Source: a virus (lineage: Duplodnaviria; Caudoviricetes). From it: a stretch of DNA of 64,000 nucleotides. The notes beneath the pieces are model-generated. The model made no database searches. It was not told the DNA's origin and worked only from the letters and a program-made list of their open reading frames with translations. Positions 8,532 to 40,529 of the stretch are shown piece after piece. Location: positions 369 through 64,368 of the IMG/VR virus record IMGVR_UViG_3300018063_000004. One strand, written 5' to 3'. Position numbers and translations under genes: made by a program. Within the stretch, counting starts at the first letter, position 1; each line of letters starts with the position of its first letter.

Positions 8532-8610
8532 GGCCAAAAAAAAGAGCGCCCGAAGGGCGAGCTGTGAAGCTCGAGTCCTTCGGGCGCTCGGGTCCTCCGC
8601 CGCGCCCGGC
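8532..8610 (-). promoter_or_regulatory. Attenuator copy 2 upstream of capsid gene
   Basis: CGGGCGC-ggCGGAGGACCCGa-GCGCCCG versus terminator GAGCGCCCGAAGG..CCTTCGGGCGCTC-T8. Confidence 0.85.
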
Positions 8611-8629
8611 GGGATCACGATCGATCGAC

Positions 8630-13759: not shown

Positions 13760-14343
13760 CGAATCTCCACCATCATCGTCTTCCGCACGAATCCTGATTC
13801 AGAAGAAAACAAGTTGTGCAACATGGCCCCTTCACCAGGTCGAAGAATAATCGGCGTTTGTCCTTTGACTTTGTAGTCAAAACACCAAAAGGGCGGGGCC
13901 TTTGTCGCAGATTCTTCATTCAACAGGCTGCACCCGCCATAGCGAAAGACCTGTGTTGGGTTCGCGGTGACGCAGTTGCCTCTGCTAAACGTCACCCCGG
14001 TCACGCTCGGATTTGTCGAATCAAGCGCGTTGACTGGAAGCGTGACGCAATCCACTCCGGCAGTGGAAATGTGCGTCAGGGTGTAGACCACCTGGACGCC
14101 AGCATTCACGCCAGTCGGCTGCGTCGCCATGTGAATCCCTAAGAGGCGCACGACCTTTCCGGAACCAGCCGTGTTGAAGATGATCAGGCAGGGAAGGACG
14201 GGACAGCCGACCGTAGACGTAAAGGTGTAGGTAAACGCCTGCTGCCGCGACCAGTCCGGCGTCAGTTGACCGCGCGCAGGCCGGACCAGGGCGATCCCGA
14301 GTCCGACGATGACCAGCGCCGTCGTGAATCGCGTCCAGGTCAT
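13756..14343 (-). CDS. Secreted jelly-roll-like protein B (paralog of A)
   Basis: Signal peptide (ARG|Q); IFNTAGSGKVVR..PIILRPGEG; 6 Cys. Confidence 0.75.
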   Translation of the reverse strand: MTWTRFTTALVIVGLGIALVRPARGQLTPDWSRQQAFTYTFTSTVGCPVLPCLIIFNTAGSGKVVRLLGIHMATQPTGVNAGVQVVYTLTHISTAGVDCVTLPVNALDSTNPSVTGVTFSRGNCVTANPTQVFRYGGCSLLNEESATKAPPFWCFDYKVKGQTPIILRPGEGAMLHNLFSSESGFVRKTMMVEIR

Positions 14344-14999
14344 TGCTTCCCCTTGAATGCGTAGTTGATGACTGACGCGGCACCAGCCTGCACGCGGATC
14401 CCGCCGGTGAAGATTTTCCCGTTCGGGTGCCATTCGATCTGCGAGTTCGGCGGCACGAAAATGCTGTTCACGTAGGTGAACGGCGTGCCGGCATTGTCCT
14501 TGATGATCACGGTCGTCGTCTGCGTGCCGATGTTCGTCACGAACATCCAGTCCAGGCACGTCGCCGTGGCCGTGACCACCGTATCGGTCGAGGGCATCGC
14601 CGCGTTCGTCTCAAAGTTCGTGGACCCACAGCCGGATGGATCGCCGCCGGCTCCCGACAGCACTTCCACTTTGAAGCCCCCCGCCGCACCCAACGCCGTC
14701 GGTAGGGGCACGACTGTGCCGCCGGAAAAGAGTTCCGACGCCAGATTGAAATTCGTAGCCGTTTGCTTAAGTTGTTGCCCTTGCGATCCGAAGACGACAC
14801 CCAACAGCCGCGCCCCCCGATCCGACACATCGCGCGGATCGATGTGCGCCCCGCCAAAGACGATCTTGAACGGCCAGGCGTTCGCGTCCGATGTCGTCGC
14901 CGCTTCGCCTTGACCGACGACTTGCGCGTGAGCGGCTGCGGCGAGCAAGAAGAAGAGTCCGAGCACGATTGCGACCATTCGATAAATCGCGTTCATCAT
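14340..14999 (-). CDS. Secreted fibre-like protein
   Basis: Signal peptide (AHA|Q); AWPFK..IDPRDVSDR fibre-like segment plus beta-sandwich; 2 Cys. Confidence 0.7.
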   Translation of the reverse strand: MMNAIYRMVAIVLGLFFLLAAAAHAQVVGQGEAATTSDANAWPFKIVFGGAHIDPRDVSDRGARLLGVVFGSQGQQLKQTATNFNLASELFSGGTVVPLPTALGAAGGFKVEVLSGAGGDPSGCGSTNFETNAAMPSTDTVVTATATCLDWMFVTNIGTQTTTVIIKDNAGTPFTYVNSIFVPPNSQIEWHPNGKIFTGGIRVQAGAASVINYAFKGKQ

Positions 15000-15475
15000 T
15001 TCTCTCCTACTAATTGCGCGTTGACGGCTGGCGCGCTCCCGGCGTTCCATTTGGCCCCGACCATCGTCGCCCGGCCAAGCAGCTTGAACTCGGTCATGTT
15101 TCGTTGCAGCTCATACTCGTTCAGGTAAAAGCTTCCGGCCGTGTTCGTCAGCGTCACCTTCTGTTTCGTCGTGGTTAGGTTGCAGAGCAAAATCCCAATC
15201 GCTCGGATTGTGTCGGTCGTAATCGCGGTCAGTGCAGCCGGTAGAGTTGTGATCCCGCTGTCGTAGCCTGGCGCCACGTCGCGCACGGCGGCACCAAAAT
15301 CCGTCGGCGCTGGCAGCGCGTTCGAGACTTTCTGGCGTGCGCCGGCTGTTTCTGGATCCCCGACCGAGACGACTTCCCGTTCAACCTCGCCCGCGGCGGT
15401 CGTGAGTCGAACCGTCTCCATTTTCTTGCCGGTCGAATCCGGCGCGACTTGAATGAAGGATTCCGTCACGGCCAT
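14996..15475 (-). CDS. Fibre-like virion protein (no signal peptide)
   Basis: QVAPDSTGKK..VSVGDP; C-terminal domain resembles that of 14340-14999. Confidence 0.65.
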   Translation of the reverse strand: MAVTESFIQVAPDSTGKKMETVRLTTAAGEVEREVVSVGDPETAGARQKVSNALPAPTDFGAAVRDVAPGYDSGITTLPAALTAITTDTIRAIGILLCNLTTTKQKVTLTNTAGSFYLNEYELQRNMTEFKLLGRATMVGAKWNAGSAPAVNAQLVGEK

Positions 15476-15479
15476 GCGC

Positions 15480-15920
15480 TTATCTCTGTGTCAAGACGAT
15501 CGTGATCTTTTCGAGATCGCCGATGTGCTCGACCGTTCGCGGCGCCGGAACTAACAAGCCAGTGGCTTTGTCGAGTGTTGTGAATTGTTCGCCGCCGACC
15601 AGTAGGACCGTATCTTTGGTGACGATGAAATAGCCGGCGATCGGGCGATTCGTTGGACCCTGAAACATGAACACGACTTCCGGGTAACGCGCGATCGCCG
15701 GCCGATTCGAGCGCGCGTCGTCGATCGTCCATTCTCGAGGATCGAGACGGACCGCGGCATAGCCCGGGCCCTGGACTTCGGTATAGCGCGCCGCGGTATC
15801 GGTCGGTTGAGGCGTGCGTTCGTTGGTGAAGAGCTTCAAGATCAATTCTTCCGGCTGCCGGCGCGCGAGCTGCACCTCGAGCCGGTAGGTCGTCCAGGCA
15901 TGCGTCGTCATGCCTGGCAT
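15480..15920 (-). CDS. Virion structural protein
   Basis: LKLFTN..P..YTEV..GY..VF..IAGYFI pattern of phage structural/fibre-base proteins. Confidence 0.6.
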   Translation of the reverse strand: MPGMTTHAWTTYRLEVQLARRQPEELILKLFTNERTPQPTDTAARYTEVQGPGYAAVRLDPREWTIDDARSNRPAIARYPEVVFMFQGPTNRPIAGYFIVTKDTVLLVGGEQFTTLDKATGLLVPAPRTVEHIGDLEKITIVLTQR

Positions 15921-17723
15921 CTACAACTCCTTGACATTCTCGGAGCCAATAATCTGGCCGTTGCTATCCCTCACGACCTTTCTCGGCGGCGACGTGAGAT
16001 CGACATTCACGCGAGCGCCCTCCACGGTGACGGCCGCCGGCGCGACGTTGACGGTAATCGGCGCCGCCTGTGCCGACCGCCGGTCAGCGAGACGGCCCCC
16101 GAGGTCCTCAAGCTGCCGACTGATGGTCTCGAGCCTGCCGTGGCCGTTCCCGCCATGGGGTTCCAGCCGCTCCGCCTCCTCCCGCTGCGCGTCCTCATCC
16201 GGATCCGGCCGGCCGAAGGGGGGATTCGTCGGCCGCCCAGGCCGAGCGGCCGCGGCCGCGGCCATGGCTGCTTGCATCTCGTCCGCGCGCCCCTGGCGTT
16301 CTGCGGCGTCCGCGTCCGCCTCGTCCATGACGTCTTGCGCTTTGAAATCGAAGCCCGATCCGAGATGTTTCGTGAGCGCCAGCGTGATGATGGACGCGAC
16401 ACGCCGGCTGATCGTCTTGTTGTTCATGGCCGTATCCATCGCGGCGACGATCTGCGAGAGTGCGCTGCCCACGCGCGAAATGTCCTTCGCCGCAATCTCC
16501 GGCATGTTCACGCTGAATACGTCGGTCGTCAGATGGCGGAACAAGATCGGATTCAACCCGCGCTGTTGCTCGATCCCGAAGCGGAGGATCTGAGTCAGAA
16601 ACCCGCCGAACTCCTTCTGCCGCGCCGCCGGCGTTTTCATGGCCACGTCGTTCTGTCCTTCGATGGTTGCGCGGTTGCTGTCCTGCCAGCCGAACCAGGC
16701 GATCGGCATGCCGAGCGAGCCGGCAATATGGATGGTCAAGAGGCGCGCGGTTTCTGATCGGTCCGTCGCGTTCAAGGCGGGCGAGAGTGCGGTGAGCTTC
16801 TCGTGCTGATTGCGGCCGAACACCGAGCCGGCTGATGGCGTGCCGATCTCGGCCATGCGCTCGGCGATCTGCACTTTCGTGGCGTCCTTGATCTCGAGAT
16901 CCCACACGAAGGCGGAGAGCAACCGGACGCGCTCCACCTCCGCAAACATATATTGATCGAAGAGATCCAGCCAATCGGCCAACGGGAGGTAGTCCGAGCG
17001 CCCGCGGCTCGAGTTCGGCAGATTGTTGATCGCGAAGTAAAAACACTCGCCCTCGAGGCGGCCGGTCAGCGGATTCTCCTGGATGATCGTGATCCGCCGC
17101 GACTCGGCCTCATGCGGTTGTCGTTTGAGCCGGACGAACTCTGGGACGAGGACGTTATCCGGGCGCGTCTCGACTTCCTCAATCTGATAGGGATCGATGA
17201 ACCCGATCGTCGGCACACCCGTCACGTCGTTGACCGCCACGGGCAGGACCAGTTCGCCGTTCAACATCAGCGCATTCGAGAGCTTGCGCGCGCGTTCGCC
17301 GAGCCGATTGATGGGATGGTTCCAGACCTTGCCGACCGCCTCCGCGATCTTCGGGTCTTGCGCGTCAAAGCTGAGGCCTTCGCCCACGACCAGGTCGGTC
17401 TGAGCGGTGATCAGGCGGCGCGCGAAGGGATTCGTTTCGTAGAGAAACCAGGCGATTTCCAGCATCCGATCTTGTTGCATGGGCTGGAGATCGCGCTTTT
17501 TGAACTTCGTCCCGCTCGAGAGCCGGCGGAATTGATAGTCGTCGCTATCGATCATGCCGGCGATGGGTGAGAGCGTGAGCGCCTCGGCGCGCCTGGCGGC
17601 CGCGGCCTCTGACGCCTCCGACCGCCGGAGCGGCAGATCGAGGAACGGTTCCTCCACGGTGGCCACCGCGGTGACGAAGATGGGCGGATGCATAAACGCG
17701 CGGACGCGATCGCGAAAGCTCAT
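15921..17723 (-). CDS. Portal protein
   Basis: Downstream of terminase; NPFARR, NGE, RGRSD motifs; 600 aa. Confidence 0.88.
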   Translation of the reverse strand: MSFRDRVRAFMHPPIFVTAVATVEEPFLDLPLRRSEASEAAAARRAEALTLSPIAGMIDSDDYQFRRLSSGTKFKKRDLQPMQQDRMLEIAWFLYETNPFARRLITAQTDLVVGEGLSFDAQDPKIAEAVGKVWNHPINRLGERARKLSNALMLNGELVLPVAVNDVTGVPTIGFIDPYQIEEVETRPDNVLVPEFVRLKRQPHEAESRRITIIQENPLTGRLEGECFYFAINNLPNSSRGRSDYLPLADWLDLFDQYMFAEVERVRLLSAFVWDLEIKDATKVQIAERMAEIGTPSAGSVFGRNQHEKLTALSPALNATDRSETARLLTIHIAGSLGMPIAWFGWQDSNRATIEGQNDVAMKTPAARQKEFGGFLTQILRFGIEQQRGLNPILFRHLTTDVFSVNMPEIAAKDISRVGSALSQIVAAMDTAMNNKTISRRVASIITLALTKHLGSGFDFKAQDVMDEADADAAERQGRADEMQAAMAAAAAARPGRPTNPPFGRPDPDEDAQREEAERLEPHGGNGHGRLETISRQLEDLGGRLADRRSAQAAPITVNVAPAAVTVEGARVNVDLTSPPRKVVRDSNGQIIGSENVKEL

Positions 17724-18079
17724 GAAGCCCTCTCCAGTGTCAAGACCGCGATCGCTTTTCGGCGCGCGGATTTCTCAAGTTTCGAGACGGTGACAATCGA
17801 GAGCTGAAGACGTCGCACGATTTGCGCCTGTGTGACTGGCACATCTGACCCAATACCGAGCCGCAGCTCGAGCACGCGCGCTTCGTTCGCCGTGAGGCGT
17901 GTCTTGATCGTCGGCCAGTGCGGCTTGAGGAAGGCGCGCCAGCGCCGACGGGAGGCTTCGCGAGCCGCGGTAGTCAAACGCTCCCCCCTGGTCAGAGAAG
18001 GTCCGACGCCCGCGCGAGGTTCTTCCTGTGGCGCGTTCGTGGAAGGATGTCGGCTGAGTGTAGCAGAGCTGTCTCGCAT
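17720..18079 (-). CDS. Sigma-70 region-4-like HTH protein
   Basis: LTANEARVLELRLGI..TQAQIVRRLQLSIVTVSKLEKSARRK. Confidence 0.7.
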   Translation of the reverse strand: MRDSSATLSRHPSTNAPQEEPRAGVGPSLTRGERLTTAAREASRRRWRAFLKPHWPTIKTRLTANEARVLELRLGIGSDVPVTQAQIVRRLQLSIVTVSKLEKSARRKAIAVLTLERAS

Positions 18080-18083
18080 GGGC

Positions 18084-19658
18084 CTATCGCCGGCGATTAC
18101 CGAAGATGAATCCGGACAGCCGTCGATAGTTCTGATCCGCACGTGGCGCCGGCGCCGGCGGCGCAAACGATCCGACGGCCAGCGTGGCGCCCGTCGATGC
18201 GTGATACGCAATCACAACGGCGTGCGCGCGATCTGGTGAGGCCTTCAGCCCCTTCGGCATATCGGCCGCGGCAATACTCGGATCATCCGGATCCTTGATC
18301 GCGAGCTGGCCCTTCGGCATGTGCCGCGTCCGGAGGTTCGAGAGCTGGCCCTTCAGGCGATCGTCGTCGCAGAGCCCGAACGTCCCGACCTCGCCGCGCT
18401 CCCGAGCCCGGAAGTTGTCCTCGAGCGCCATGCGGAACTTCCAGCAGAGCCAGGCTTTGTTATTCTGGAAATGTTCCTTCCGATCGTCGGTATCGAGCGC
18501 GGACTTCGATCCAAAAATCACGGGCATCGTCGGGATCTGGTGCAGTTTCATGAGCATATCGGTCACGCCGCCGCCGAGGCCTGTGTCATCCACGCCGATC
18601 GTTTGCGCGCCGAGCGCCTCGCCCTCATACAAATCGACGAGCCGCTGCGTGGTCGTGACCAGGTCCGTCTTCGTCCACGTTTTGATCCAATCGATCCGCG
18701 TGCTCGAGCCGAAGGCCGTGGCCGTTTCGTCCACACCGAAGCGCGCCACGTCGCACCCGAGGACCTTGCGCGAGGCGTGCTTGATCGCCGGCTCGAGCGT
18801 CTCGTGCTCGCACTCGCCCTCGAGCTTGCCGCACGTCGCGCAGCGTTGCGCCTGGCCGGCCAGCTCGGCGGCGAGGATCCAATCGAGCCGGATCAGAATG
18901 TCATCGCCTTCGTTCGGGAACTCGCCGAGGACTTTTGCCTGGTAGATCGGCGACGTGACGCCCCATTCCTCGGCTTTTTGCGCCAGCCACTTCCGATCGA
19001 CGCGCGGCGCATCCTCGCCGTTGATATGAATCTGCCGAAAGAACTTCGCGATGCGGCCGAAATGTGATTCATAGAACTTGCCCTGGCGGGATCCCGGCGT
19101 CGACGTATAGAGCCGCTGGCCGCCGGTGGTGAGCGCGCCATCGATGGCGTCATAGATCGGATTCGACACGCCCTTCGCTTCGTCCACAATGAACAACACG
19201 AACGGCGCGTGGAAGCCTTCCATGTTTTGCGGCTTGTTCGACGCGATCCCGATCGCGTGCCAATCGGCTTCATGGCCGCGCACGCTCATTTTCGTTTTCG
19301 AGAGCACGAGATGCTCCTTGAGGCGAAAGCCTTGATGCCATTTCGCGATCTCGGCCCACAGAATGTCTTTGACCTGGCGGAGCGTCGGCGCCGTCGTCGG
19401 CACTTTCGAAAACGGCCGCGTCAGGAGATACCAATAGACAATGAAGGCATCGACGGTCGTTTTCCCCACGCCGTGTCCGCTCCGGACCGTGACGTCGTCG
19501 CCCGCGGCGATCCCCTCCATGATCGCCGCCTGATAGTCCTCGAGTTCGACCGGTTGGCCGTTCTTGTCGCGGAAGAGATCGTGGACAAACGCCCGCGGAT
19601 TCGCGTGATAGCTCTTCCACTTGGCGACCGCAAAGTCGCGGACCTCCGCCGTCAACAT
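18084..19658 (-). CDS. terL: Terminase large subunit
   Basis: SGHGVGKTT Walker A, IVDEA Walker B, STP motif, GCDVARFGVDET, SPDRA. Confidence 0.95.
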   Translation of the reverse strand: MLTAEVRDFAVAKWKSYHANPRAFVHDLFRDKNGQPVELEDYQAAIMEGIAAGDDVTVRSGHGVGKTTVDAFIVYWYLLTRPFSKVPTTAPTLRQVKDILWAEIAKWHQGFRLKEHLVLSKTKMSVRGHEADWHAIGIASNKPQNMEGFHAPFVLFIVDEAKGVSNPIYDAIDGALTTGGQRLYTSTPGSRQGKFYESHFGRIAKFFRQIHINGEDAPRVDRKWLAQKAEEWGVTSPIYQAKVLGEFPNEGDDILIRLDWILAAELAGQAQRCATCGKLEGECEHETLEPAIKHASRKVLGCDVARFGVDETATAFGSSTRIDWIKTWTKTDLVTTTQRLVDLYEGEALGAQTIGVDDTGLGGGVTDMLMKLHQIPTMPVIFGSKSALDTDDRKEHFQNNKAWLCWKFRMALEDNFRARERGEVGTFGLCDDDRLKGQLSNLRTRHMPKGQLAIKDPDDPSIAAADMPKGLKASPDRAHAVVIAYHASTGATLAVGSFAPPAPAPRADQNYRRLSGFIFGNRRR

Positions 19659-19664
19659 AAAAAA

Positions 19665-20663
19665 TCAGTGTGTCCTCGGCGGCGGGTGAGTCATGGCCAT
19701 CGCGTGAAGAGGGAGATTGCGCCATTGCAGCGTGTGCCAGACCGGATCGGTCCGGGACGTGCGGGCATCGTAGAGACCCCATCCGTTCTGCCCATCGGGC
19801 CCCTGGTCCGCCTCGAGCACGAAGTGCCGCGCCCCGAGCTGCCCGGCCTGTGTGTAGGCCTCCAGGATCCAGCGCCGGCGGATGCTGCGCGTGAGGCACT
19901 CGGAGGCCTGAACGGCGTCTGAGCGGCCGGCCCACGCCAGACGCGCCCATTCCTGGATCCGCGGCCAGGTGGCCAAGCGTTCCTCGAGTTGCCAGCCGAT
20001 GCGGGTGAACGTGATCGGGAGATTGAGCCGCTTGCCGACCATGTAGCGGACCGCGGCGAACAGCCGCCGGCGGAACGGTCGGCCGGGTGTCACGGCATGG
20101 CAGGACAGGCCGTGACAGCGCGTCACGAAGTCCCGGACGACGCCGGCCGTCGCGTGCGCGCGCGCGCAGCGCAAGAGCCCTATCAGCCAAGCCGAGGCCG
20201 CGGGCGATCCGTCAAACCCGGCGCCGAGCAGGATCGGCCGGTTCACCGTAAAGGCGCGAACGGTCGGGATCTGCGGATCATGCGCGAAGGCGAGCAGCTC
20301 GAGGACGGCGGAGGCCTGGTCGACAAAGGCGAGTGGCGAGAGGTGTCGCCACGGCACGCAACCGATCTCGAGCCCGGCTGTCACGCCAAGGCCATGTGTC
20401 GCAATCAGTCTGGCGGCCAGGCGTGCGCCGGCGACACCGATGCACTCCACGGGTAAGCACCAGAGCACATTGAGCTGGTGCGTGTCGGCATGGCGGATCC
20501 AGGTGAGGGTATTCGGGGGATCGCACAGCACGTGCCGGACGATCGTCGGACGGAGGCCGAGGACCGCGGATCGATCGAATCCGATCCCGAGCCTCGGCGC
20601 ATGGGCGAAATTCACACCGAGCTGCATGGATGACCTTTGTTGTGGAACCAGCCGGATGTCCAC
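19665..20663 (-). CDS. Clan GH-A TIM-barrel-like protein, apparently catalytically dead (alternative start 20627)
   Basis: GVNF, LEIGCVPW (for EIGNEP), LSCH, ITFTRIGW (for ITExGW), WGLYD. Confidence 0.55.
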   Translation of the reverse strand: MDIRLVPQQRSSMQLGVNFAHAPRLGIGFDRSAVLGLRPTIVRHVLCDPPNTLTWIRHADTHQLNVLWCLPVECIGVAGARLAARLIATHGLGVTAGLEIGCVPWRHLSPLAFVDQASAVLELLAFAHDPQIPTVRAFTVNRPILLGAGFDGSPAASAWLIGLLRCARAHATAGVVRDFVTRCHGLSCHAVTPGRPFRRRLFAAVRYMVGKRLNLPITFTRIGWQLEERLATWPRIQEWARLAWAGRSDAVQASECLTRSIRRRWILEAYTQAGQLGARHFVLEADQGPDGQNGWGLYDARTSRTDPVWHTLQWRNLPLHAMAMTHPPPRTH

Positions 20664-20697
20664 GAGAGACGGCCGATCGCCGACCCCGGGTCGAACG

Positions 20698-20895
20698 TCA
20701 CGCGCGGGTCACGTGTGTCGCGCGTGGACCCTTCGGGCTCTTTTCGGTCTCGAAGGACACGCGCTCGCCTTCCTTCAATTGATCGAACAGCGTGCCCGTG
20801 CAACCGGACTGATGAAAGAAATACTCCGTGCCGTTCTCGGCGGCGATGAACCCGAATCCTTTGTCTGTCAGCAATCGTTTAATCGTGCCTGTCAT
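20698..20895 (-). CDS. csp: Cold-shock domain protein
   Basis: KGFGFI (RNP1), YFFH (RNP2), KGPRA; AAGGAG RBS. Confidence 0.95.
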   Translation of the reverse strand: MTGTIKRLLTDKGFGFIAAENGTEYFFHQSGCTGTLFDQLKEGERVSFETEKSPKGPRATHVTRA

Positions 20896-20958
20896 CGATC
20901 GTCGCTCCTTTGGATGATCGTCACAGCTATCACAGCGCCTAACCGCCAGGCCGAACAG

Positions 20959-21030
20959 TGGAGCGGACGGAGAGGTTCGAACTCCCCTCTGCGCTTGGAA
21001 GCGCCGCAACGCCTTCTTTGCTTCGCCCGC
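20959..21030 (-). tRNA. tRNA-Gly(TCC)-like gene with aberrant anticodon arm
   Basis: Acceptor GCGGGCG/CGTCCGC-T-CCA, D stem GCAA/TTGC, T arm GGGAG-TTCGAAC-CTCTC; anticodon arm GCGC-TTCCAA-GCGC is short. Confidence 0.7.
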
Positions 21031-21060
21031 CTGCACGGTCTCTTGTCTTTCATGCCCGCG

Positions 21061-21273
21061 TCAATCGCTGGTCGGTTCCACTTGTGAGACGGTCCGCTTC
21101 ACGTAGGACGGCAAGGCCGGTTCGCCCTTCGCTTGGCGCGTTTTGTTTTCGCTGATCACGCGATCCTCGGCTTGCTGTTCGAGCGTCTCCACGTGGCGTT
21201 CAGCCTCGGCCTGGTTTGGCGCGTTGATGTCGAGCGTTGAATCATCGGAGAGTGTTGCGCGAAACTTTGGCAT
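21061..21273 (-). CDS. Hypothetical protein
   Basis: AGGAG RBS; 70 aa. Confidence 0.65.
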   Translation of the reverse strand: MPKFRATLSDDSTLDINAPNQAEAERHVETLEQQAEDRVISENKTRQAKGEPALPSYVKRTVSQVEPTSD

Positions 21274-21284
21274 GTTGGCTCCTG

Positions 21285-21584
21285 TCAGAATAATCGGCGG
21301 AGAAGTTCCGCGATTAGAAGTGGCACGACGATCGCTCGTAGGCAATAGACACACAGACAGCGGCCTGGATCCCCGCAGTTCACGCACGGCCGGTTCCACC
21401 AGCGGGGCGCGATCGCCCCATAGGCATCCCGCACGGCAATCACATCTTTTTTCCACTGTTCGTTTGCGAACCACAGCCAGTCCCGAATGTGCGCCGCGCG
21501 CGAGAGTTTCCAGATCCCGAGGATGATGAAGCCGCCGGCGGCGCCGCCGAGCACGTTGATCGCGAGCAGCTCGGGCCAGGTCAT
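21285..21584 (-). CDS. Small membrane protein carrying a tape-measure-identical peptide
   Basis: Two hydrophobic segments, Cys cluster, NEQWKKDVIAVRDAY. Confidence 0.7.
   Translation of the reverse strand: MTWPELLAINVLGGAAGGFIILGIWKLSRAAHIRDWLWFANEQWKKDVIAVRDAYGAIAPRWWNRPCVNCGDPGRCLCVYCLRAIVVPLLIAELLRRLF
21420..21464. repeat. 45-bp direct repeat, copy 1 (copy 2 at 60735-60779)
   Basis: 43/45 identical, both mismatches synonymous Lys codons. Confidence 0.95.
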
Positions 21585-21799
21585 TCGAACCCTACTGTCC
21601 GCGCGTCCTGGAACTCTCGTTCGAGGATCTGTCGGAGTGTGTCCGCAAACAGCCGCGCCGCTTCGAGACGTTCAATCGTCAGCACGCCGAGCGGTTCGAT
21701 TTCGATTTCCGCTCGTGCCTTGATCCTTCGACCGAATGCTTGATCGCTCTCTAATTCAATCGTGAACGTCGCGCCCTGTTGTTTTACGAAGATCGCCAT
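21581..21799 (-). CDS. Hypothetical protein
   Basis: GGAGG RBS; coupled to next gene. Confidence 0.6.
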   Translation of the reverse strand: MAIFVKQQGATFTIELESDQAFGRRIKARAEIEIEPLGVLTIERLEAARLFADTLRQILEREFQDARTVGFE

Positions 21800-21822
21800 A
21801 TGCCAGCCTCCTGAAGCCACGG

Positions 21823-24800
21823 CTATCGACGGCCAAGTGCAGCAACTTGACGCCGGCGCGCTCGAGCCTCGAGGATCTCGAACGCCTGGCGGTCCGCCAG
21901 TTCGTAGATCCCGCGGATCGTCTCAGCCGCCATCTGGTCGTCGAGTTTGATCTCCACACAGACGTGAACTTCCTCCGTCGCAATCCCGGTCGGTGTCGCG
22001 CCGCCGACGATTCGCTGTTCGTGTCTCATGCCGTGGTCGAGCCTCGAACGCAAGTCATGTGCAACGTGGTGAGCCTGCCGGCACAAATAGCATGCCTTCA
22101 GCCCAGATTTCCTTCCGAACCGGCACAGAGAGGGTTAGGTTGATCAACTTGATGCCAGCGTCCCAATCGGTCGGACGTTTCACGAGCGGGAAGCCTCGAT
22201 AGCTCTCGGCCTCATATCCAGCCGTCTTGAGTTCCGTGATCACTAACTCAGTCCAAGCTTTGAGAGTCATCGGCGCGTTGTCGCTTTCCGGATGAAGGTG
22301 ATGCGTCATGCGGTCGGCCTTTCGAGTAGTCGTCGCGCTTTTCCGATCGCCAGACGGACACTGTCTCGTTGCGCCGCCTCGTTCGTGTGAGGTCCAAAGA
22401 GACCAGCGGTCGTCATCGCTTCGCAGAGCTGATTGAGCTGCGCGCGCCCGGCGTCGGTCACGTCCTGGGCCATACTCGGCGCGCCCTGCCAGGCTTCCGG
22501 ATGCTTGAGCAGCCAGGCAATCCGGTCGTCATGTTTTCCCCACTTCGACCTCGAGGCCATCGAAGAGATCCTTTTTTGGTGTGCGTGGCGTCTCGACCAC
22601 GCGCACGCCGGCGCCGAGACCGATCAGGGTCTCGGGATCTTTGTTCTTGAAATAGACCGTGGCTTCTTCGCCCTGGCCGAGCGCAAGGCGGAGGCCGTCG
22701 ATCTCCACAAACGACGGCGCCAGCAACGTATTGAGCGCCGTCAATTCGCCGTTGCTGAAGTCCTTCGCCCGAAACGTATACGCGATTGGTTTCCCGCGGA
22801 TGGCATAGTCGAGAAACCGTTCGATCTGCGATTTCACCTCAGCCGGCCAAACTTCGGATGCCTACCGAAGATCGCCTGCAGCCGGATCTTTTCTATGATG
22901 GTCGCTTTCAACCAACGTGCGAACCGTCGGTTCCATTTTCGATTACTGGAACGACCCATCGTTCAACACCCTTTCGCCAACATGAACCCGAGCAGCATCG
23001 CGATGAAGGGCAGCGCAAGCAGCTCGCCGCCGGCGCCTCCTTCGCGCATTTCGCGATTCGGTGGAAACTCTGGCCGCCGCGGGCCACGCCAGCCTGGAGG
23101 CGGAGGCGGAGCCGGAGGCCTCCTCCCGGGCGGAGGCGGAGCCGAAGGCCTCCTCCCCATCAGAGCATCAGCCGCGTCGGAATGACGGCGGCCAGCTCTG
23201 GTCGCAGCGGCGCCGTTTCCTGGAGCGCGATCTCGAACTCGCTGCTGTCCTCTGTGCGCTCGACGCCGATCCGCGTGATGTAGGCGTGACACGGGATCCC
23301 GTGCTCAGTCGTGCCCTGCCAGATCCGCGCGGGCACGCCGTTCAAGGTCACCGTCCGATCCGTGGGTTCCAGCGTGACTTTCATCGCTGATCGCTCCTTT
23401 CCGATTCATCTTGTTTAGGCGGCGCGTTGCCATACGAACCGCCGCGGTGTGTTCAGAATCGGGCCCGCGGCCCGTGTGTAGATCCGACGTGCCTCAGCGC
23501 CGGCGTCGTGACCCTCACGCCAGAACCGTTGCCAGGCGCGCGAATACGTGACGCCCCGCCGATTGTTGGTTCGATAGTCTCGATACGGATTCGCCGCGTT
23601 GACCTTGAACCATCCGACGACGAAGGCCTTGTGGAAGGCGACAAAGAATGGCGACGCGCCGAGGCGCCGAGACGGCATGAGCTTCGTCCAGGCCTCTCGC
23701 TCGGCCAGATTCGCCGCGGAACATTCCGTGCAGACCATCTGATTGGAGCCGGCCGCCCAATCGCAACCTTCCGGACAGGGATCGAAATGGGAACAGCCGC
23801 AGAATCGACACACGCCTTTCGTCATGGAATCCTCCTTTGTCGCTGAGCTGTGAGACCGTTGGCCTCAATCCAGACGCGCTGGCCTTTCTGACGAAGCATG
23901 ATGGCAATCGAGAACATCTCCTGGCGATACCCGAAGGGTCCGAGTGCCAGCGTGCCTCGTGTGGCACCAGGCTCGAGGCGCATGATCAGAAACAGGCCGG
24001 GCCCACAGAGAAGCCCGTGCGTGCCGCGGCGGATGCGCTTCACGATCACTTCACCTCAGTGTCAGGAACCGGCACGCACCCGGCCGTCTCACACAAAAAG
24101 GTTCGCGGATGCGGATTGAACCGATCGCCCTCCACGCCGATTTCATACATGAGCGGCGGCTCATCGACACGCTCGAGCGCCGACGCCGTGACTTCGCGAA
24201 CGTCGTCCGGATGCGCGCCGGCGAGCGCCCCTACGGTTGCCAGATTCGCTTCGATGAGTGCCCGCTCGAGCTGCGTGAGGAACTCGACGCACGCGATCCC
24301 ATCATCGGTATAGCCCATCAGCTCATGCGAGAACCGACGGACCACGGCAGCCGCCATCGTTCGCGGAATGCTGATCGTGACGTGAAGCTCAATTGCTGGC
24401 TGACGGCCCTCGTGTGCCACGGTTGCCTCCTTACGGTTTCACGAACGGCCGAACCGCATCGCAGAGCAGACAGCGCGGCTGTTCGTGCGGCGACCACCAT
24501 TCGGCGCATTCATGGCCGGCGCCCTGACTCACGGCTTGCCGGAGTTTCGCGATCTGCGTCAACGGGATCGACGTGTCATCACGCCGAATCGTGAGTCGGC
24601 CATCCTCGCCGCGCCGGCGGCCGGTCAGAAGATGTCGCGTCCAGCCATCAGGTTCCCCCTCGCCGTTCCAGGTATTCATGTCCTCGAGCGCCGCCGCCCT
24701 GGAGGCGTAATCCCACACGTCGTTGTAGCCGCTGTTGAAACTCTCTGCGGATGTATCGCCGGGGAGCTGTGAAAGGGCGAGACGCGCACGCTTGAACGTC

Positions 24801-25331
24801 TGCGGTTCCACGGCCAGCCAGAATCCGGTTGCGTTGCCGGCGTCGAGCTGGCGCGTGCCATAGAACCCGAGGTCGTCGACAGGCCCCTCGAGGCCGAAGG
24901 TCTCGGGATCAGCCGCGGCGAGTTGCTCGAGATGGTCCTTCAACGCTTGATCAGACACGGACTTCTCTCGTCAGCAATTGGAACGCGGTCTTGGCGTGCG
25001 CGATCGCTTCGGGTGTCGAGCCGGCGAATGTGGCGATGCTGTGCAGCCAGGCCAGGACATCGCCGCGTCTAGTTACGTCCTCCACCAGGCGATCGGTCTC
25101 GTTCATGAATTCCTGAACCGGATCGCGGCCGGCCTGGAGATCCTCCCATCGGCGTTGCGCGCCTTTTGCGGCGCCGCCGATCATCTCGCCGATATTGAGC
25201 GTGAGGCAGACGACGACGCCGTCCGGGAATTCGAGCCGGAGATACGGCTTGCCGGTTCCCGGATCGGATTCGGTGAGATCCATCTGACAGACACCATGAA
25301 TGATCGGCATGTGTGCTCCTTTTACCGTCAC
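21823..25331 (-). other. Chain of about 12 small, mostly translationally coupled hypothetical genes (e.g. 22055-22309, 22306-22560, 22529-22837, 22963-23160, 23160-23384, 23415-23825, 23822-24049, 24046-24420, 24431-24958, 24951-25331)
   Basis: Abutting or overlapping stop-start junctions and RBSs; no family recognised. Confidence 0.6.
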
Positions 25332-25897
25332 CTCGATTGCGGTCCCGGCTGTTGTTTGTCCGCCTGTGCGAGTTCGTAGGCTTCCTGGATCAGACTCACG
25401 AGATCAGAGCCCATGCCGCCGCCGCCCTCCGCGTGAATATGCGGCCACAGATGCGCGATCGCCGCACGAATCTGCACCCGTTCATCTTTGGAATCGAGCA
25501 GTCGACCGAGCACGCGCGCCGCGTGCGCTTTGTTCTTGTCGAGCACTTCGATCGCGGATCGATTCGCCTCATGAATCGCCCGCTGGAATTTGGCGGCATT
25601 GATCCGCACATTGACGGCCTCACGACCGAGCCCAACGATTTGGCCGATCTGCTCCTGCGTGAGTTGTGGCTGTTGCAGAAGCAATCCGAGGATCGTCGCG
25701 TCGACATGATCGAGTTCGAACGCCGCCCTGGCGATCGAGGCCTGGCGGCGCGCTTCAAAATCCGCCCGTTGTTTCTCGAAAAGCCCTTTCGCGGTCTGCT
25801 CCGGAGTCTGCGGCCCTCGTGCCACGATCCGGAGCGTGCGTCGTCTCCGGGATCTGTGGCGTTGTGTGGTTTTGCGTGACCCGCGTTTCTTGCTCAC
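25328..25897 (-). CDS. HTH protein, probable terminase small subunit
   Basis: AsnC-like HTH (LTQEQIGQIVGLGREAVNVRI) then AARVL..LL.S.DERVQIRAA helical region; start uncertain. Confidence 0.55.
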   Translation of the reverse strand: MSKKRGSRKTTQRHRSRRRRTLRIVARGPQTPEQTAKGLFEKQRADFEARRQASIARAAFELDHVDATILGLLLQQPQLTQEQIGQIVGLGREAVNVRINAAKFQRAIHEANRSAIEVLDKNKAHAARVLGRLLDSKDERVQIRAAIAHLWPHIHAEGGGGMGSDLVSLIQEAYELAQADKQQPGPQSR

Positions 25898-26081
25898 GTG
25901 AGCGCTTTCCGCTTCCGTGGTGTCCAGATCGGATCCCGCGAACGCTTTTTCCCTGGCGTCGGTTGCGCCACGAGTTTTGCCTGGCGGGCCCGTGTCCACG
26001 TGGGTTGCGGCAACTTCGCCACGCGCTGACAGAGATCGCACTTCGGATCATGGCAAGTGCCGAGCGCGCAGCAGCCCATCG

Positions 26082-26276
26082 CTACGTCGTCATCGCTAGC
26101 CGCTGAATCTCTGCATCGATCAGCCGTTGGCGATCCTTAGACAGTGCGAGCACAACCAGAATCAGTGCTTCCTCATGTGTGGCGTGCCCACTCTCCACCA
26201 GCGTGATTGCGTGATGTAGGAATGGACAGCGCAACGCAGCAACCTGAACATCTAGCCAAGCGTTCTTCTCGGTCAT
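26082..26276 (-). CDS. Hypothetical protein
   Basis: Short ORF in operon. Confidence 0.45.
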   Translation of the reverse strand: MTEKNAWLDVQVAALRCPFLHHAITLVESGHATHEEALILVVLALSKDRQRLIDAEIQRLAMTT

Positions 26277-26318
26277 AAGGCCCCGCAACCGTTCGAGCGC
26301 GCCGCGGCCGATAGCTGA

Positions 26319-26570
26319 TTACGGTTCGCCGTCGACGTAGTCGGGGATCTTGCTGCCGTGCGTCGCTTGCCAGGCGCGCATGTCCTCCGCAATCTGCCGA
26401 GCCCGCGCGACTTTCTTTGGATTCACGTTCGCCACTTCCGCGTGGTTACACCAATCGTCGACGCGGCCTGGCGCGAGCACGTCATGGCCGGCGAGCAGGA
26501 ACACGGGTTCTTCGTCCTGACACCGATTGATCGTGCTGTCCAGCCGTCCGAGTTCCTCGCGTTTCGTCAT
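26319..26570 (-). CDS. Hypothetical phage protein (DEEPVFLL type)
   Basis: GGAGG RBS; DEEPVFLLAGHD..AP motif. Confidence 0.65.
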   Translation of the reverse strand: MTKREELGRLDSTINRCQDEEPVFLLAGHDVLAPGRVDDWCNHAEVANVNPKKVARARQIAEDMRAWQATHGSKIPDYVDGEP

Positions 26571-26615
26571 GCCCCTACCTCCTACATTCATCGCCCGGTT
26601 TCGCTCAGGTGCGAC

Positions 26616-26662
26616 TAGCCTTGCGGCACGGTCAGTATGCGGCGTCACGAATCCTCCAGCAA
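26616..26662 (-). promoter_or_regulatory. Sigma70-like promoter with downstream operator
   Basis: TTGCTG-N17-CATACT followed by CCTTG-CGG-CACGG quasi-palindrome (26619-26631). Confidence 0.6.
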
Positions 26663-27905
26663 GCTCAGTTGCGTCACCGTTGGCAATTCGGCCTGCGATT
26701 CGAGCCCTTCACATAAAGCCAACATGGCCGGCCGTTCGGTGGCCGCGATGCGGCGGCGCGCAATCTCGAGATACTCCGCCTCGCGCTCGATCCCGACAAA
26801 CTCGAGACACTCCAGCTTGGCGGCCATGCCCGTGGTGCCAGAGGTGTTCCGGTATTGCGCGAAGGCGACCGCCGACGAGCTCGGCGACAGGACAGCCCGG
26901 CACGCATTGCCAGGCCTGGACGCTTTCGCCGTCGGCCGAACGCGACGTGAGCCCATCCTGGCCAGGATGGCCGCCATACACGCCGGCGCCGCCTCCGCTT
27001 GGCGGCCGTTTCGTCGGCCAATGGCCCGAGACCGTGACCGAGACATTCCAATCCAGCGGCCGGCAGTCTGGCATGTGCGACAACAGCACATTGGGCGGCC
27101 AGCGGCCGATCTCTGATTTCACCAGGCTATCGCCTCGAGGTTCGATCCAGCTTCGGAGGCCTTCAGCCCCAAGCCGGCAGGCGTCCACCTGAAGCCCGCC
27201 GGTGCCTGAGCGCAGCAAGTTGGCGCCGAGCGTCCCGCTGAAGGGTTTGCGCGCGACGACAATCGGTTCATGCGCCGGCTTGAGCCCAGAACCGACGCCG
27301 TCGAATTGTTCCGACTCGGGTGACGGTTTACACACGTGATCGCCCGGCTGCAGCATATGCTCCGCCGGCAGCTTCCGGAGGAAATGCCGACCAGTGTCCT
27401 CGCAGAGACAGCGCGCCGCCTCGCGTTCGCCGTCGATCGATTTCGGAAAGCCCGTGCCATAAATCCAATCGATCGAATCACGGATCTCAAATCCCGCGTC
27501 CTCGATCGCACAGACCATCCGGTGATACGTGCGTGCCCCCCCAAACGCCAGAAGATGCGCGCCAGGTTTAAGGACGCGCAACACAGCTCTCGCCCATTGT
27601 TCACACCACACCTGGAAAGCCTGATTCCCTACAAATGAGAAATCATACGATCCAGCTTGGCTCGCGCGATTACCAAACGCCGATGAACTGCGCGGCGCCG
27701 TCCGGCCAGCGCGTGAACTCGAATGTGGCCCTAGTGAACAGCGCCGTTCGACATCTTTTAGAGCCGCTTCGTCGATCAATTTGCCATCCCATGCTTTTCC
27801 CATAAATCTGATCCCGTAGGGCGGATCGGTCACGCAGGCATCGAACGTCTCAGCCTCGAACGTTTCGAGGACCTGAAGACAATCGCCGAGCAGAATCGTT
27901 GACAT
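26645..27905 (-). pseudogene. N4/N6 DNA methyltransferase disrupted by deletion, inversion and frameshift
   Basis: GDC, TDPPY, LKPAHEP in one frame; SGTTG..GIE..Y.EIA..RI in another; FRYCAKA on the opposite strand; HPTxKP and LDPF missing. Confidence 0.8.
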
Positions 27906-28182
27906 CCGGTTTGTCCGTCTGATGTTTCGGGCAATGATCGCGATCGTCGCCGACGCGCGTGCGATGTCGTTCACACATCGGCGCGTCGCAGGTTGACGCC
28001 TTGCCGCCGCGAAGGTGCCCGACGACGAAATCGCAGAGATACGGTGCCATTCGCCCGCAACGTTCACCGACTTCGAGATTGTCGCCCTCGAGCGCCGGCG
28101 ACATACACGACGCCGGCGAGCCCTTGCCGCGAATCAGCAAGTGCATCGTGCCCGAGCCGTCCTCAGTCCGATACCAGGGCAT
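27850..28182 (-). CDS. Cys-rich Zn-binding protein
   Basis: LCDF..TCDAPMC..H..DHCPKH. Confidence 0.6.
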   Translation of the reverse strand: MPWYRTEDGSGTMHLLIRGKGSPASCMSPALEGDNLEVGERCGRMAPYLCDFVVGHLRGGKASTCDAPMCERHRTRVGDDRDHCPKHQTDKPDVNDSARRLSSGPRNVRG

Positions 28183-28884
28183 CAACGATCCTCTTCCGTG
28201 GCCGGCGTCGTCAGGCGCGCCTTCCACACGTCCGCCGGCGGCGCCGTGTGTTCCTCCTCGAGGATCTCGCTCTCGGCGTTTCGCCAGCGAATCAACACCG
28301 TCTCGCCGACGTGCGCCTTCACAGCCCGAACGATTGTCTGTGTCATCGTTGGAATCGTCAGAGCGTCCGAATCCCGCACAGATTCTCAACGAGATCGGTG
28401 AGTTGTGAGATCGCCCGATAGAGATGCGCTGTCGGATCGAGGCGCGTCCGGACGTATCCGAGGTCCTCGGCACGCTCGAGCGCCCGCAACGTCTCAACGC
28501 CGAGCGCGCCTTTCGCCAGTTCGAGCTGCTCGCGCACGCGCGTCAGGTATTCCTGTTGAACCATGTCGCCTCCGTCGTCCTTTCGATGAATGGCGCACGG
28601 GACCGGTAACTGATGCGCCGCGCACCAAACGTAGATGCAGCTCACTGTCCCGTCATCTTTTCGGCGACCAGACTGGCCGCGTCAACGTAACGTGAGACGG
28701 TTTGGATTCGGCCGCCGATACGAGAGAAGTCGAGCGTCAACCGCACACGGGTCCGCGTCGGTGAGTGTCCGATCACGATTCCTTCGATCCGGCCATCAGC
28801 GCCGAGCACGTCCTCATAGCCGAATGTGCCGGATCCAGGCTTGTAGCGGACCGCCTGCCCGACAGGTAATCGTCGCGCGCTCAT
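28182..28884 (-). other. Three small hypothetical genes (28182-28379, 28358-28645, 28642-28884)
   Basis: Coupled ORFs. Confidence 0.5.
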
Positions 28885-29138
28885 GCGCGGGCCTCGGCCA
28901 GCCGACGATCGAGATAGCTCCGCACGTCGCCGACCGTGTAGAGCGTCCATCCTTCGATCTCTTGATCCGAAATCTCGATCCCGAATTCCGCTTCGAGCGC
29001 CATCCCGATTTCGACCATATCGAGTGAATCCGCGCCGAGGTCCTCGACGAGCGTCGCCGTCGCCGTGAGCGCATCAGCTTCCACGCCGAGCGCATCGATC
29101 AAGACTCTCCGAATGCCCGCCTCGCGATCGATCGTCAT
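28881..29138 (-). CDS. acpP: Acyl carrier protein
   Basis: EDLGADSLDMVEIGMALEAEFGIEISD..TVGD; phosphopantetheine Ser intact. Confidence 0.92.
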   Translation of the reverse strand: MTIDREAGIRRVLIDALGVEADALTATATLVEDLGADSLDMVEIGMALEAEFGIEISDQEIEGWTLYTVGDVRSYLDRRLAEARA

Positions 29139-30490
29139 CGTCGCACCGCCTTTCTCGGCCGCTCATGCGGCCGGATTCGCCGGGCCCCATGCACATGTGT
29201 AGAGGTCTGGCCTTGTCCTTCTTCGAGTTTGTCGGCTTGCTTCCCGGTGAACGTTTGCCAGCGTTCGACGCACACTTGCGCGAAATAGGGCGATAGCTCC
29301 ATCGCGTAACACGTCCGGCCAACCTGTTCACACGCGATGATCGTGGAGCCGGAGCCAGCAAACGGATCGGCGACAATTCGCGCCATGCCGGTCACGTCGA
29401 GGATCGTTTTGAGTAGCTCGACTGGTTTCTCCGTCGGGTGATGTTCGTTCCCCGATCGATCGCATCGGACGACGTTCCCCTTCGCTTCCTTGTGGGTGAA
29501 TGGCGCCTTGACGCGCGTGCCGCACGCGACCAGCTCATGTTGTGAGCGCCAGCCGATCCCCATGCCCGGTGTGCCTTTGTCCCAGACCACCATCGCGCGA
29601 ATCCCGTAACCCTGGCTCTCCATGAGGTCGGTGAGGTTCGTCCACATCCGCCAGTCGGTGAAGATGTAGGCGAGTTTCGCGTTCCAGGTATCGAGGACCG
29701 ACTTGATCAGCTCTTTATAGCCGCGCGTGCTGAGCACGTCATTCGCGATCGAGACCGTCTGGCCCGTGAAGTCTTTTTTTGTGGTCCCGATCGATCCCTG
29801 AATCCGGTCCGCTTCCTGGAACCCGCCGGAGCAATAGGGCGGATCGGTCAGCAGCGCGTCGATCTTTTCCCCTTGCGTGAGGAGTCGCACATCGAATCGT
29901 TGCGTGGAATTACCGCAGAGTAATCGATGGTTGCCGAGGCCGAACAGATCGCCGACCTTCACCCACGGGTCGATCGGCATCGGCGGCGCCATGGCGCTGC
30001 CTCGCTGTGTTTCGAGATTCGCGATCAAGTCTTGGACGTCGTTGGAATCGAACCCGACGCCGGCGAGGCCTGCGGCCGTGCCCTGAAGCGAGACCAGCAC
30101 GTCCTTCAGGATCGGATCGATGAACCCGCCGGCAATCACGGCCTGATTACTCGCGACGAGATAGGCCTCGTGCTCGCCGTCATCCTGGAACGCGACGCCC
30201 CGCACGACTGGAATCATCCACTCGCCATCCTCGCGCACTTGAATGTGCTCGGGCGCCTCTTCGCTGGAGAGTTTCATGGCGTTGAGTGTTTTGAGGCGGC
30301 CGTGGCCCGCGGCCAGGCGCCCGGATCGTTCGTCCACGAGGATCGGCTCCACGAACCCGAACCGCTTGAAGCTCGAGTTCAGGAGGCCGAGATCGTGATC
30401 CTTCGGATTGCGAGGCCATTCCAACACATCGGCGAGCGGCCAATATTCGATCTGGAGCGCCTCGCCCGTTGCCGGCCGTTTATTGCTCAC
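29135..30490 (-). CDS. ParB-like domain plus N4/N6 DNA methyltransferase
   Basis: NPK.H, FGFVEPI, AGHGR; HRLLCG, TDPPY, HPTEKP, DPFAGSGST. Confidence 0.9.
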   Translation of the reverse strand: MSNKRPATGEALQIEYWPLADVLEWPRNPKDHDLGLLNSSFKRFGFVEPILVDERSGRLAAGHGRLKTLNAMKLSSEEAPEHIQVREDGEWMIPVVRGVAFQDDGEHEAYLVASNQAVIAGGFIDPILKDVLVSLQGTAAGLAGVGFDSNDVQDLIANLETQRGSAMAPPMPIDPWVKVGDLFGLGNHRLLCGNSTQRFDVRLLTQGEKIDALLTDPPYCSGGFQEADRIQGSIGTTKKDFTGQTVSIANDVLSTRGYKELIKSVLDTWNAKLAYIFTDWRMWTNLTDLMESQGYGIRAMVVWDKGTPGMGIGWRSQHELVACGTRVKAPFTHKEAKGNVVRCDRSGNEHHPTEKPVELLKTILDVTGMARIVADPFAGSGSTIIACEQVGRTCYAMELSPYFAQVCVERWQTFTGKQADKLEEGQGQTSTHVHGARRIRPHERPRKAVRR

Positions 30491-31071
30491 GGATGCGCCC
30501 TTCGACCACTTCAGCACCCGTCGCTTCGACCAGCCGAGCGCGGTGAACGACATCGCCAGGGCAGAGCCAGACGATCATCGATCCCGTGCGGAAGCGTTGC
30601 CAGCCCGCAGCGAATGCGAGATCGACGGTCTCGAATATTTCTTCCTTCAAACAATGCCAGCAGCGTGTTCCAATCGTCATGTGGCATCCTCCGCGGCGAA
30701 CCCGCGCCGTGCGTTCGATCTCACGATCCCTCCCGTTGAAGTTGGCCGCACGCCGGCCAGAAGGCGCGCCAATCGCTGCCTTCATACCCGTTCACGTTGT
30801 AGAGTTCGCACTTCAGAAATGTCTTGCCGTGGAGGACCTGGCCGGCCCGTTCCGCTGATCGTTGCGACATGCCCCCATGCGCGGCCTTGCGAATCAGGTG
30901 CGCGCATTCCTTACACGTGACGCCTTCGGGCCCATGTCCATGTTTGGCGTGCATCGATCCGAGGCGACGGAGCTGGCCCTGGCGATCCGCCTCGGTGCGT
31001 TTCGAGACCTTGCCCGGGAGAAACCGGATCAAGGATCCGCCGGTCTCGAACAGGCGCGGCTCGTCGCTCAT
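30480..31071 (-). other. Two small Cys-containing genes (30480-30680, 30721-31071)
   Basis: CxxC motifs; operon position. Confidence 0.5.
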
Positions 31072-40236: not shown

Positions 40237-40529
40237 CGTGCGGCCCCCGATGATCGCGACGTTGTCTTGGGTTCTTGATCGCGGACTGTTCGCGCGCGGC
40301 CCTGCGGCAATCGGCTAGCCTCACGCTGATGGGCGAGAAAGCGACGGATGCGATGCAGGCCAATTTCGTGGTGGAAGTTCTTGTTTCGGATGGCGGTGTG
40401 AAGCGTCCGCATCGGGACCGGAAAGCCGGCGGCCGCCATCTCAGCCGCCAATCGTCGGAACGTCAGGCCGCGATCGAGCCGATACGTTGCGAGTTCCTGC
40501 AGCTCGGGGAGTGGAAGTTCTGGCAACAT
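40233..40529 (-). CDS. Cro-like HTH regulator
   Basis: YRLDRGLTFRRLAAEM; divergent from repressor. Confidence 0.7.
   Translation of the reverse strand: MLPELPLPELQELATYRLDRGLTFRRLAAEMAAAGFPVPMRTLHTAIRNKNFHHEIGLHRIRRFLAHQREASRLPQGRARTVRDQEPKTTSRSSGAAR

Follow-up and report, generated by a model that had tools for sequence, protein, structure and literature searches.

A short segment of a phage tape measure gene recurs in frame in the gene for a small putative membrane protein

Results

A gene for a small putative membrane protein in a freshwater-sediment phage carries within its coding sequence a 45-nucleotide (nt) copy of a segment of the phage's own tape measure protein (TMP) gene, and on balance we regard this patch as a recent ectopic copy, now integrated and tolerated, in an accessory membrane protein of the lytic cycle. 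The DNA analysed here, a stretch of 64,000 nt hereafter called the window, corresponds to bases 369–64368 of a 64,368-bp contig whose first and last 123 bases are identical; the contig stems from a freshwater sediment metagenome and is entered in IMG/VR as a virus record; the entry gives direct terminal repeats and rates completeness at 100 (CheckV). Matches to PHROG and Pfam families place a protease/major-capsid fusion at 5844–8618, the portal at 15921–17723, the large terminase at 18084–19658, a replication initiator at 33783–34727, an SbcC-like protein at 35075–37144, a RecT-like annealing protein at 38605–39819 and, on the plus strand, a tyrosine integrase at 41489–42592. A fusion of a ParB-like nuclease domain with a DNA methyltransferase (phrog_498, E 4e-81) is encoded at 29135–30553 on the minus strand, and PHROG/Pfam matches place a second DNA methyltransferase at 26709–28067. 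Because of the terminal repeat, the CheckV value and the presence of an integrase together with structural genes, the genome is read as complete, temperate and siphophage-like. Nearly all of its genes lie on the minus strand, and the TMP gene is reached from the packaging and capsid genes across the circular junction.

The two copies of the segment lie on the minus strand at 21420–21464, within the small gene, and at 60735–60779, within the TMP gene. They are identical at 43 of 45 positions (45 nt and 96% in a repeat listing), both begin and end at codon boundaries, and both encode, in frame, the 15 residues NEQWKKDVIAVRDAY; the sole differences between them, AAA AAA in the small gene versus AAG AAG in the TMP gene, fall in synonymous Lys codons. 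When the 45-mer was searched for with up to three mismatches, exactly two places in the window were returned (0 and 2 mismatches), against a mean of 0.00 matches in 100 dinucleotide-preserving shuffles. The bases flanking the patch differ immediately on either side, and a BLASTP match between the two proteins reaches 16/18 residues and no further. Hydropathy reveals a Gly-rich hydrophobic segment ahead of the peptide in both proteins, at residues 6–25 of the small protein (14 residues ahead of the patch) and at residues 932–968 of TMP (30 residues ahead). The original prediction had described just such a 43/45 match over 15 in-frame codons, with two synonymous differences, abrupt ends and a preceding Gly-rich hydrophobic segment in both proteins, and each of these descriptions is borne out.

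Given the codon usage of this genome, the probability that at least 13 of 15 codons for one same peptide would be identical is P = 0.003, which argues that DNA was copied and not that the peptide converged. The identical 15-mer occurs in none of 65 TMP relatives (best 13/15), so that the donor was the phage's own TMP lineage, and the earlier claim of a DNA-level copy of the phage's own TMP is upheld by both results. An older origin, in which the N-terminal half of the small protein would descend from a TMP fragment whose core peptide stayed conserved, or in which the peptides converged, could draw on the Gly-rich segment common to the two proteins. It is, however, hard to reconcile with third-codon positions identical at 13/15 codons, with similarity that ends at 16/18 residues, and with three relatives of the small protein (P0006, P0041 and P0042) that have the N-terminal helix but an unrelated linker, and we consider it very improbable. 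A chimeric join or a sequencing artefact might instead have placed TMP sequence inside the small gene: the contig is metagenome-assembled, and the comparison was made against contigs, at contig level. Against such an artefact, the patch has unique sequence on either side, differs from the TMP copy at two positions and leaves the ORF open. For run X1, Logan has a contig (22,635 nt) that spans window positions 14000–24971 in one piece with 0 differences; since X1 is probably the source sample, this contig is to be read as a second assembly of the same reads and not as an independent sample. The identical 99-residue protein is on record from three sources (JGI/IMG, Logan and ENA), and identical pieces of the phage also occur in run X2, which belongs to another freshwater-sediment study; among the pieces listed there, none crosses the patch. 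Misassembly at the small-gene patch is unlikely, and to an artefact as the whole explanation we attach very little weight. The X2 pieces fall within window positions 14000–30000 at about 3x depth, and because they match with 0 differences the phage is present in more than one data set.

The donor gene (59610–63773, minus strand) encodes a protein of 1387 residues that matches four PHROG tape-measure families, phrog_12706 (E 4e-11), phrog_1535, phrog_23574 and phrog_167. Pfam returned no match for the window's own protein at E ≤ 0.1; PF10145 is present in its homologs P0029 and P0034, one of which its source calls a TP901-family tape measure. Along with the curated family match, the protein is very long, has hydrophobic Gly-rich regions at residues 265–398 and 886–968 and is encoded in the tail module, and the earlier assignment of this long ORF as a TMP stands on the PHROG families and the homologs. 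The TMP gene is followed by a 268-residue ORF (phrog_8610, a family of unknown function) and then by an ORF of 1397 residues; from their position we infer that these encode tail-tip proteins. A search with TMP residues 940–1387 returned 32 other proteins, 20 of which align over a 95-residue segment around the peptide at E < 1e-10. In the resulting 21-sequence alignment (A3) the whole protein has 12 invariant columns, 11 of them within residues 975–1023, and the source copy of the patch (residues 999–1013) accounts for five (W1002, R1010, D1011, A1012 and Y1013), I1007 being nearly invariant. An AlphaFold2 (AF2) prediction on alignment A4 folds the conserved block (residues 960–1045, encoded at 60639–60896, minus strand) into a compact five-helix domain (pLDDT 88.3, pTM 0.71), in which the patch occupies domain residues 40–54 and would thus be essentially helix 3 (42–56); a Foldseek search of the PDB with this model gave no match at E ≤ 0.001. 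Scanning IMG/VR with the TMP-domain alignment recovered 33 loci, and in every one the motif lies within a long TMP-like ORF (683–1546 residues, apart from one of 426 that is cut by the contig end); in none of the 33 does it lie in a small protein. Because the motif is the most conserved block of the family and always lies inside long TMP ORFs at these loci, the peptide is native to TMP and ancient there. The same conservation, together with the absence of the block from all 11 relatives of the small protein described below, argues that copying went from TMP to the small gene.

The recipient gene (21285–21584, minus strand) encodes 99 residues. Its ATG overlaps by 4 nt, as ATGA, the TGA of a 79-residue ORF at 21581–21820 on the same strand, to which it appears translationally coupled and which has no family matches; its codon-usage score (+18.1) and its GC content by codon position (0.62/0.49/0.75) both resemble those of its neighbours. 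A downstream ORF of 69 residues (21061–21270, minus strand, internal ATG taken), with no significant family matches, begins 14 nt past the stop codon and is preceded by AGGAG. Internal GTG starts within the patch were considered and rejected, because the ATGA coupling and the existence of relatives with two helices favour the full ORF. The AF2 model (pLDDT 80.9) predicts one long helix over residues 3–56, in which a Gly-rich transmembrane helix at residues 6–25 (21510–21569, minus strand; Kyte-Doolittle 1.75–1.92) runs on through the linker and the patch (residues 40–54), followed by a knuckle at 65–78 and a hydrophobic helix at 79–98 (pLDDT 90–96). The C-terminal hydrophobic stretch as such covers residues 84–99 (21288–21335, minus strand), with hydropathy of up to 2.41, and between linker and C-terminal helix lie the five Cys residues of the knuckle (C67, C70, C76, C78 and C81; 21342–21386, minus strand), which form the core of the family in alignments A1, A2 and A5. 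Since the basic residues K26, R29, H32 and R34 come directly after the first helix, the positive-inside rule predicts a cytoplasmic linker, and in this model the linker, the patch and the Cys knuckle most likely lie on the cytoplasmic face of the inner membrane. No lipobox or signal peptide was found in the protein. Overall, the proposal that this small ORF is a membrane-protein gene looks plausible in light of the ATGA overlap, the positive coding score, the two hydrophobic helices and a mean pLDDT of about 81, and these two helices, predicted by hydropathy and AF2, would give it the membrane location expected of a superinfection-exclusion protein.

The small gene sits in a tightly packed operon of lytic direction, outside both the lysogeny module and the tail operon and just upstream of the packaging genes and of a cold-shock-domain gene (20698–21036, minus strand; PF00313, E 5e-19), which lies two genes downstream of it. 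A scan for sigma-70-type sites detected no sigma-70-like promoter on the coding strand near the gene, and the count of terminator-like structures there was not above that of shuffled sequences; the small gene accordingly lacks, in these scans, the promoter and terminator of its own that mark moron-like independent expression from a prophage. Among the sequencing runs listed as containing this region, none is an RNA run.

Neither Pfam nor PHROG returned a family match for the small protein, and it appears to belong to no named protein family. In a word-seeded search of 5.8 billion proteins the sole hit was the protein itself, tblastn against 50,697 phage records gave no match, and a search of the ESM Atlas gave no usable match. 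An exhaustive phmmer search over 1.84 billion representatives returned six relatives, and a profile search brought the family to ten members, the window's own protein included (the others being P0002–P0007 and P0041–P0043). Six of the relatives are proteins of 36–55 residues that consist of just the Cys knuckle and the C-terminal helix, while P0006, P0041 and P0042 are 102–103 residues long and join an N-terminal hydrophobic helix to the knuckle through a linker that is Pro-rich; two further versions of the family come from contigs L042/L043 and L044. The protein of the window shares the family signature, C-x-N-C ... G-x-C-x-C-x-x-C-x-R followed by a hydrophobic helix, and C67, N69, C70, G74, C76, C78, C81 and R83 are invariant in A1, A2 and A5. 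By contrast, the patch is found in 0/11 relatives, and its position is the part that differs completely among them, the variable linker. Pattern scans identified true relatives among 0/11 hits in viral contigs, 1/14 in genome contigs and 2/28 in metagenome contigs, and the contigs bearing them measure 1.2–2.1 kb, which leaves their gene context thin. The combination of Cys knuckle and hydrophobic helix would thus define a tiny, very rare and undescribed family.

In L042/L043, a relative of 45 residues lies between a 40-residue membrane protein and an ORF with a CHAP domain (E 3.8e-9), directly upstream of the latter, an order akin to that of a lysis cassette, whereas the relative in L044 has no such context. 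By analogy with this one relative, a role for the small protein in lysis timing is suggested, but no more than suggested. Pfam and PHROG found no lysin domain in the neighbours of the small gene (19665–22837), and Pfam recognised no endolysin in some 30 further ORFs, about 50 having been scanned in all. The low-GC contig of this relative is filed under a Nanoarchaeota MAG; over 1277–2111 of L042 it encodes a Ser-rich repeat protein, the 40-residue membrane protein, the 45-residue Cys-knuckle protein and the CHAP-domain ORF. Because this content recalls the tail-fibre and lysis genes of a phage, the contig probably belongs to a virus and not to an archaeal chromosome.

Recurrence of the arrangement was assessed in ten other whole viral records that contain the TMP domain. 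All ten contain the domain exactly once and none contains a member of the small-protein family. As positive controls, the two profiles were also applied to the genome of the window, where one scored 148 bits at TMP and 20.7 bits (E 1.8e-5) at the patch of the small gene, and the other scored 77.6 bits at the small gene as a whole. A single-protein scan of viral contigs with TMP retrieved no close relatives of the phage. A scan with the large terminase (TerL) yielded 41 loci of 25–49% identity, and no relative of the small protein was present in them by six-frame HMM search (best E 0.012) or by motif search. As far as could be tested, the copy of the TMP helix in the small gene therefore appears to be a singleton that does not recur.

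Discussion

In the history that we favour, the TMP gene would have served as template in an event that was either non-homologous or primed by microhomology, for instance a template switch or a patch repair, and the segment encoding helix 3 of its conserved domain would thereby have come to lie, as an ectopic copy, in the variable linker of the gene for a small membrane protein. The patch may have survived because its length is a multiple of three and the reading frame was kept intact, and it would have been easily tolerable because the encoded helix simply lengthens the juxtamembrane helix. It would now be an integral, though not demonstrably adaptive, part of a protein that is probably an accessory inner-membrane protein of the lytic cycle. 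This history gains weight from another short ectopic copy in the same genome: 37 nt in the interior of the integrase gene (41759–41795) recur in inverted orientation at 40270–40306 with 35/37 identical positions, and because no peptide is preserved there, such patches can evidently arise in this lineage without peptide mimicry. The 40270–40306 arm of this repeat lies in a divergent region beside a putative regulator (40581–41117), and a transcript containing both arms could fold into a long-range stem that covers the integrase start.

Several observations sit less comfortably with a merely tolerated copy. In a protein of 1387 residues, it is precisely the helix of highest conservation that was copied. 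The ends of the piece coincide with codon boundaries, the frame and orientation of the donor are kept, and in both proteins the piece is similarly placed behind a Gly-rich membrane segment; such a combination of helix, boundaries, frame and placement would seldom come with a random patch. The two synonymous differences are also what peptide constraint would leave, if weakly so: by our own estimate P is about 0.15 for a neutral copy in the small gene and a constrained one in TMP, and two differences are too few to show selection, since any functional gene would look alike. No microhomology is visible at the junctions of the patch, so that the mechanism stays a proposal, and the hint of a lysis function comes from one distinct context of three (L042/L043, as opposed to L044 and the window), with no endolysin domain next to the gene in the window. 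The choice of helix, the frame and the placement would be expected, too, of an adaptive self-mimic, in which a membrane-tethered TMP helix 3 either competes with or intercalates into the helical domain of the TMP of an incoming sibling phage during the lytic cycle, and so excludes it, or occupies as a decoy a host protein that recognises the conserved TMP region, be it an immune sensor or a factor used for entry. In its favour, no helix of the TMP family is more conserved than the one copied, boundaries and frame are exact with both differences synonymous, and the two proteins share a layout of hydrophobic segment, basic residues and helix. The premise that TMPs can be targeted has precedents among defence proteins: during injection, TMPs are bound by the DUF4041 nuclease SNIPE (PMC13190303), and a helical segment of about 130 residues, the most conserved in TMP, activates Avs18 (PMC13581612). 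A small inner-membrane protein, HK97 gp15, is in turn able to exclude superinfecting phages (PMC3594210). Against mimicry, the patch is a singleton, present in 0/11 relatives and without a second copy in any of the ten other TMP-domain records, and its 15 residues fall well short of the roughly 130 that trigger Avs18. The predicted TMP domain is a compact bundle of five helices, one of which is the patch, and the invariant residues of that helix may pack into the core and not form a surface epitope; and the gene lies outside the lysogeny module with no promoter of its own. A complex prediction of the TMP domain with linker residues 24–66 of the small protein gave no verdict (score 0.01) and speaks neither for nor against mimicry. 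The original prediction had taken the small protein for a membrane-anchored mimic that jams incoming TMP or decoys a sensor, and had named homologs with and without the peptide as the place to look; the homologs speak against this functional inference, and comparison across the ten records gives it no support either. We regard mimicry as a possible but minority explanation, to which we would give roughly one chance in a handful.

Two more specific mechanisms for the origin of the patch were also weighed. RecT-type short-patch capture, which the original prediction had put forward, requires flanking homology for annealing, and since none exists at the patch it is unsupported and was rejected; the phage does encode a RecT-like protein, but its presence alone is no evidence for such a capture. 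The two sites at which the small-gene copy has A and the TMP copy has G might further recall the template and variable repeats of a diversity-generating retroelement. The repeat is, however, just 45 nt long, most of its adenines are unchanged, and a search for reverse transcriptase (PF00078) gave 0 matches in the complete genome, while control genomes matched; unless the enzyme were supplied in trans, a retroelement is rejected, and of all the explanations considered here it strikes us as the most far-fetched.

A recent, tolerated ectopic copy thus being our preferred reading, we compared both the event and the small protein with known systems. Small inner-membrane exclusion systems are linked to DNA entry and to TMP. 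The 99-residue protein resembles HK97 gp15 in that it would be a small phage-encoded inner-membrane protein. It differs in having no sequence similarity (no Pfam or PHROG match) and in that its gene is no moron equipped with a separate promoter and terminator, and lies outside the tail operon and the lysogeny module; to our knowledge gp15 carries no piece of TMP. The Ltp lipoprotein of phage TP-J34, which Bebeacua and colleagues reportedly found in 2013 to target the tape measure protein, is likewise a phage protein at the membrane whose proposed counterpart is TMP. Ltp is, however, a surface-exposed lipoprotein expressed from the prophage, whereas the linker described here is predicted to be cytoplasmic, and Ltp binds TMP through a dedicated fold, whereas the 99-residue protein resembles TMP. 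With SNIPE and Avs18, conserved helical TMP regions do act as recognition surfaces, which is what the decoy hypothesis presupposes, but both are host defence proteins and not phage-encoded, and the Avs18 trigger spans some 130 residues against 15 in the patch. A titles-level search of the literature on tape measure decoys and mimicry found no phage-encoded TMP decoy or mimic.

Classical phage mosaic joints fall between genes or domains and have other phages as donors. With sub-genic mosaicism and short ectopic gene conversion, the present case shares a short tract in an unrelated gene, abrupt edges and a second such tract in the genome; it differs in having its donor within the genome itself and in a tract that amounts to one helix, kept in frame. 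We read the case as a short intragenomic copy, ectopically placed within an ORFan membrane protein of a phage, and as a further form of a kind of event already known. Two-component and class II holins offer a further comparison, being small proteins with two hydrophobic helices, and the 45-residue relative lies beside a 40-residue membrane protein and a CHAP-domain enzyme. The small protein nonetheless matches no holin family, no endolysin is recognised beside its gene in the window, and we know of no holin with a cytoplasmic Cys knuckle. The window has, in addition, a separate match to Phage_holin_10: an ORF of 241 residues at 50137–50862 on the minus strand, whose first 58 residues match the Pam3 gp28 holin family (PF23987, 37.1 bits). 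The remainder of this ORF is a long, unexplained C-terminal extension beyond the holin-like residues.

If the patch is only tolerated, it would represent a clean and datable case of a phage gene gaining a segment, in which a 45-nt piece of the same genome was inserted in frame and donor, recipient and direction are known. If it is functional, no smaller route to an exclusion or decoy protein directed at TMP would be known, and helix 3 of a widespread TMP domain, one without structural relatives in the PDB, would stand out as an interaction surface. In both cases, two undescribed modules are defined, a predicted five-helix TMP domain present at 33 or more IMG/VR loci and a very rare family of Cys-knuckle membrane proteins.

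Two further repeats were noted in the window. An intergenic element of about 90 nt occurs in three copies on the minus strand (approximately 2700–2790, 8515–8610 and 63773–63865) and consists of a conserved 27-nt box with GGAGGA, a long GC-rich hairpin (MFE −53 to −58 kcal/mol, z −4.5 to −6.2) and then 7–8 U; the ATG of a late gene follows 0–15 nt on, the genes concerned being a 251-residue ORF (1948–2703), the protease/capsid fusion and TMP. The elements could act as strong terminators, which would call for antitermination, or their hairpins could draw the upstream Shine-Dalgarno sequence to the start codon. Because of the position of the element before it, the capsid gene probably starts near 8517 and not at the GTG at 8618. 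Given the late-gene hairpins, one might conjecture that the cold-shock-domain protein could act as an RNA-melting antiterminator. The other repeat, a direct one of 46 nt (45143–45188 and 47891–47936), has 80% identity with its first 24 nt nearly identical and lies in the small-ORF region between the tail genes and the integrase.
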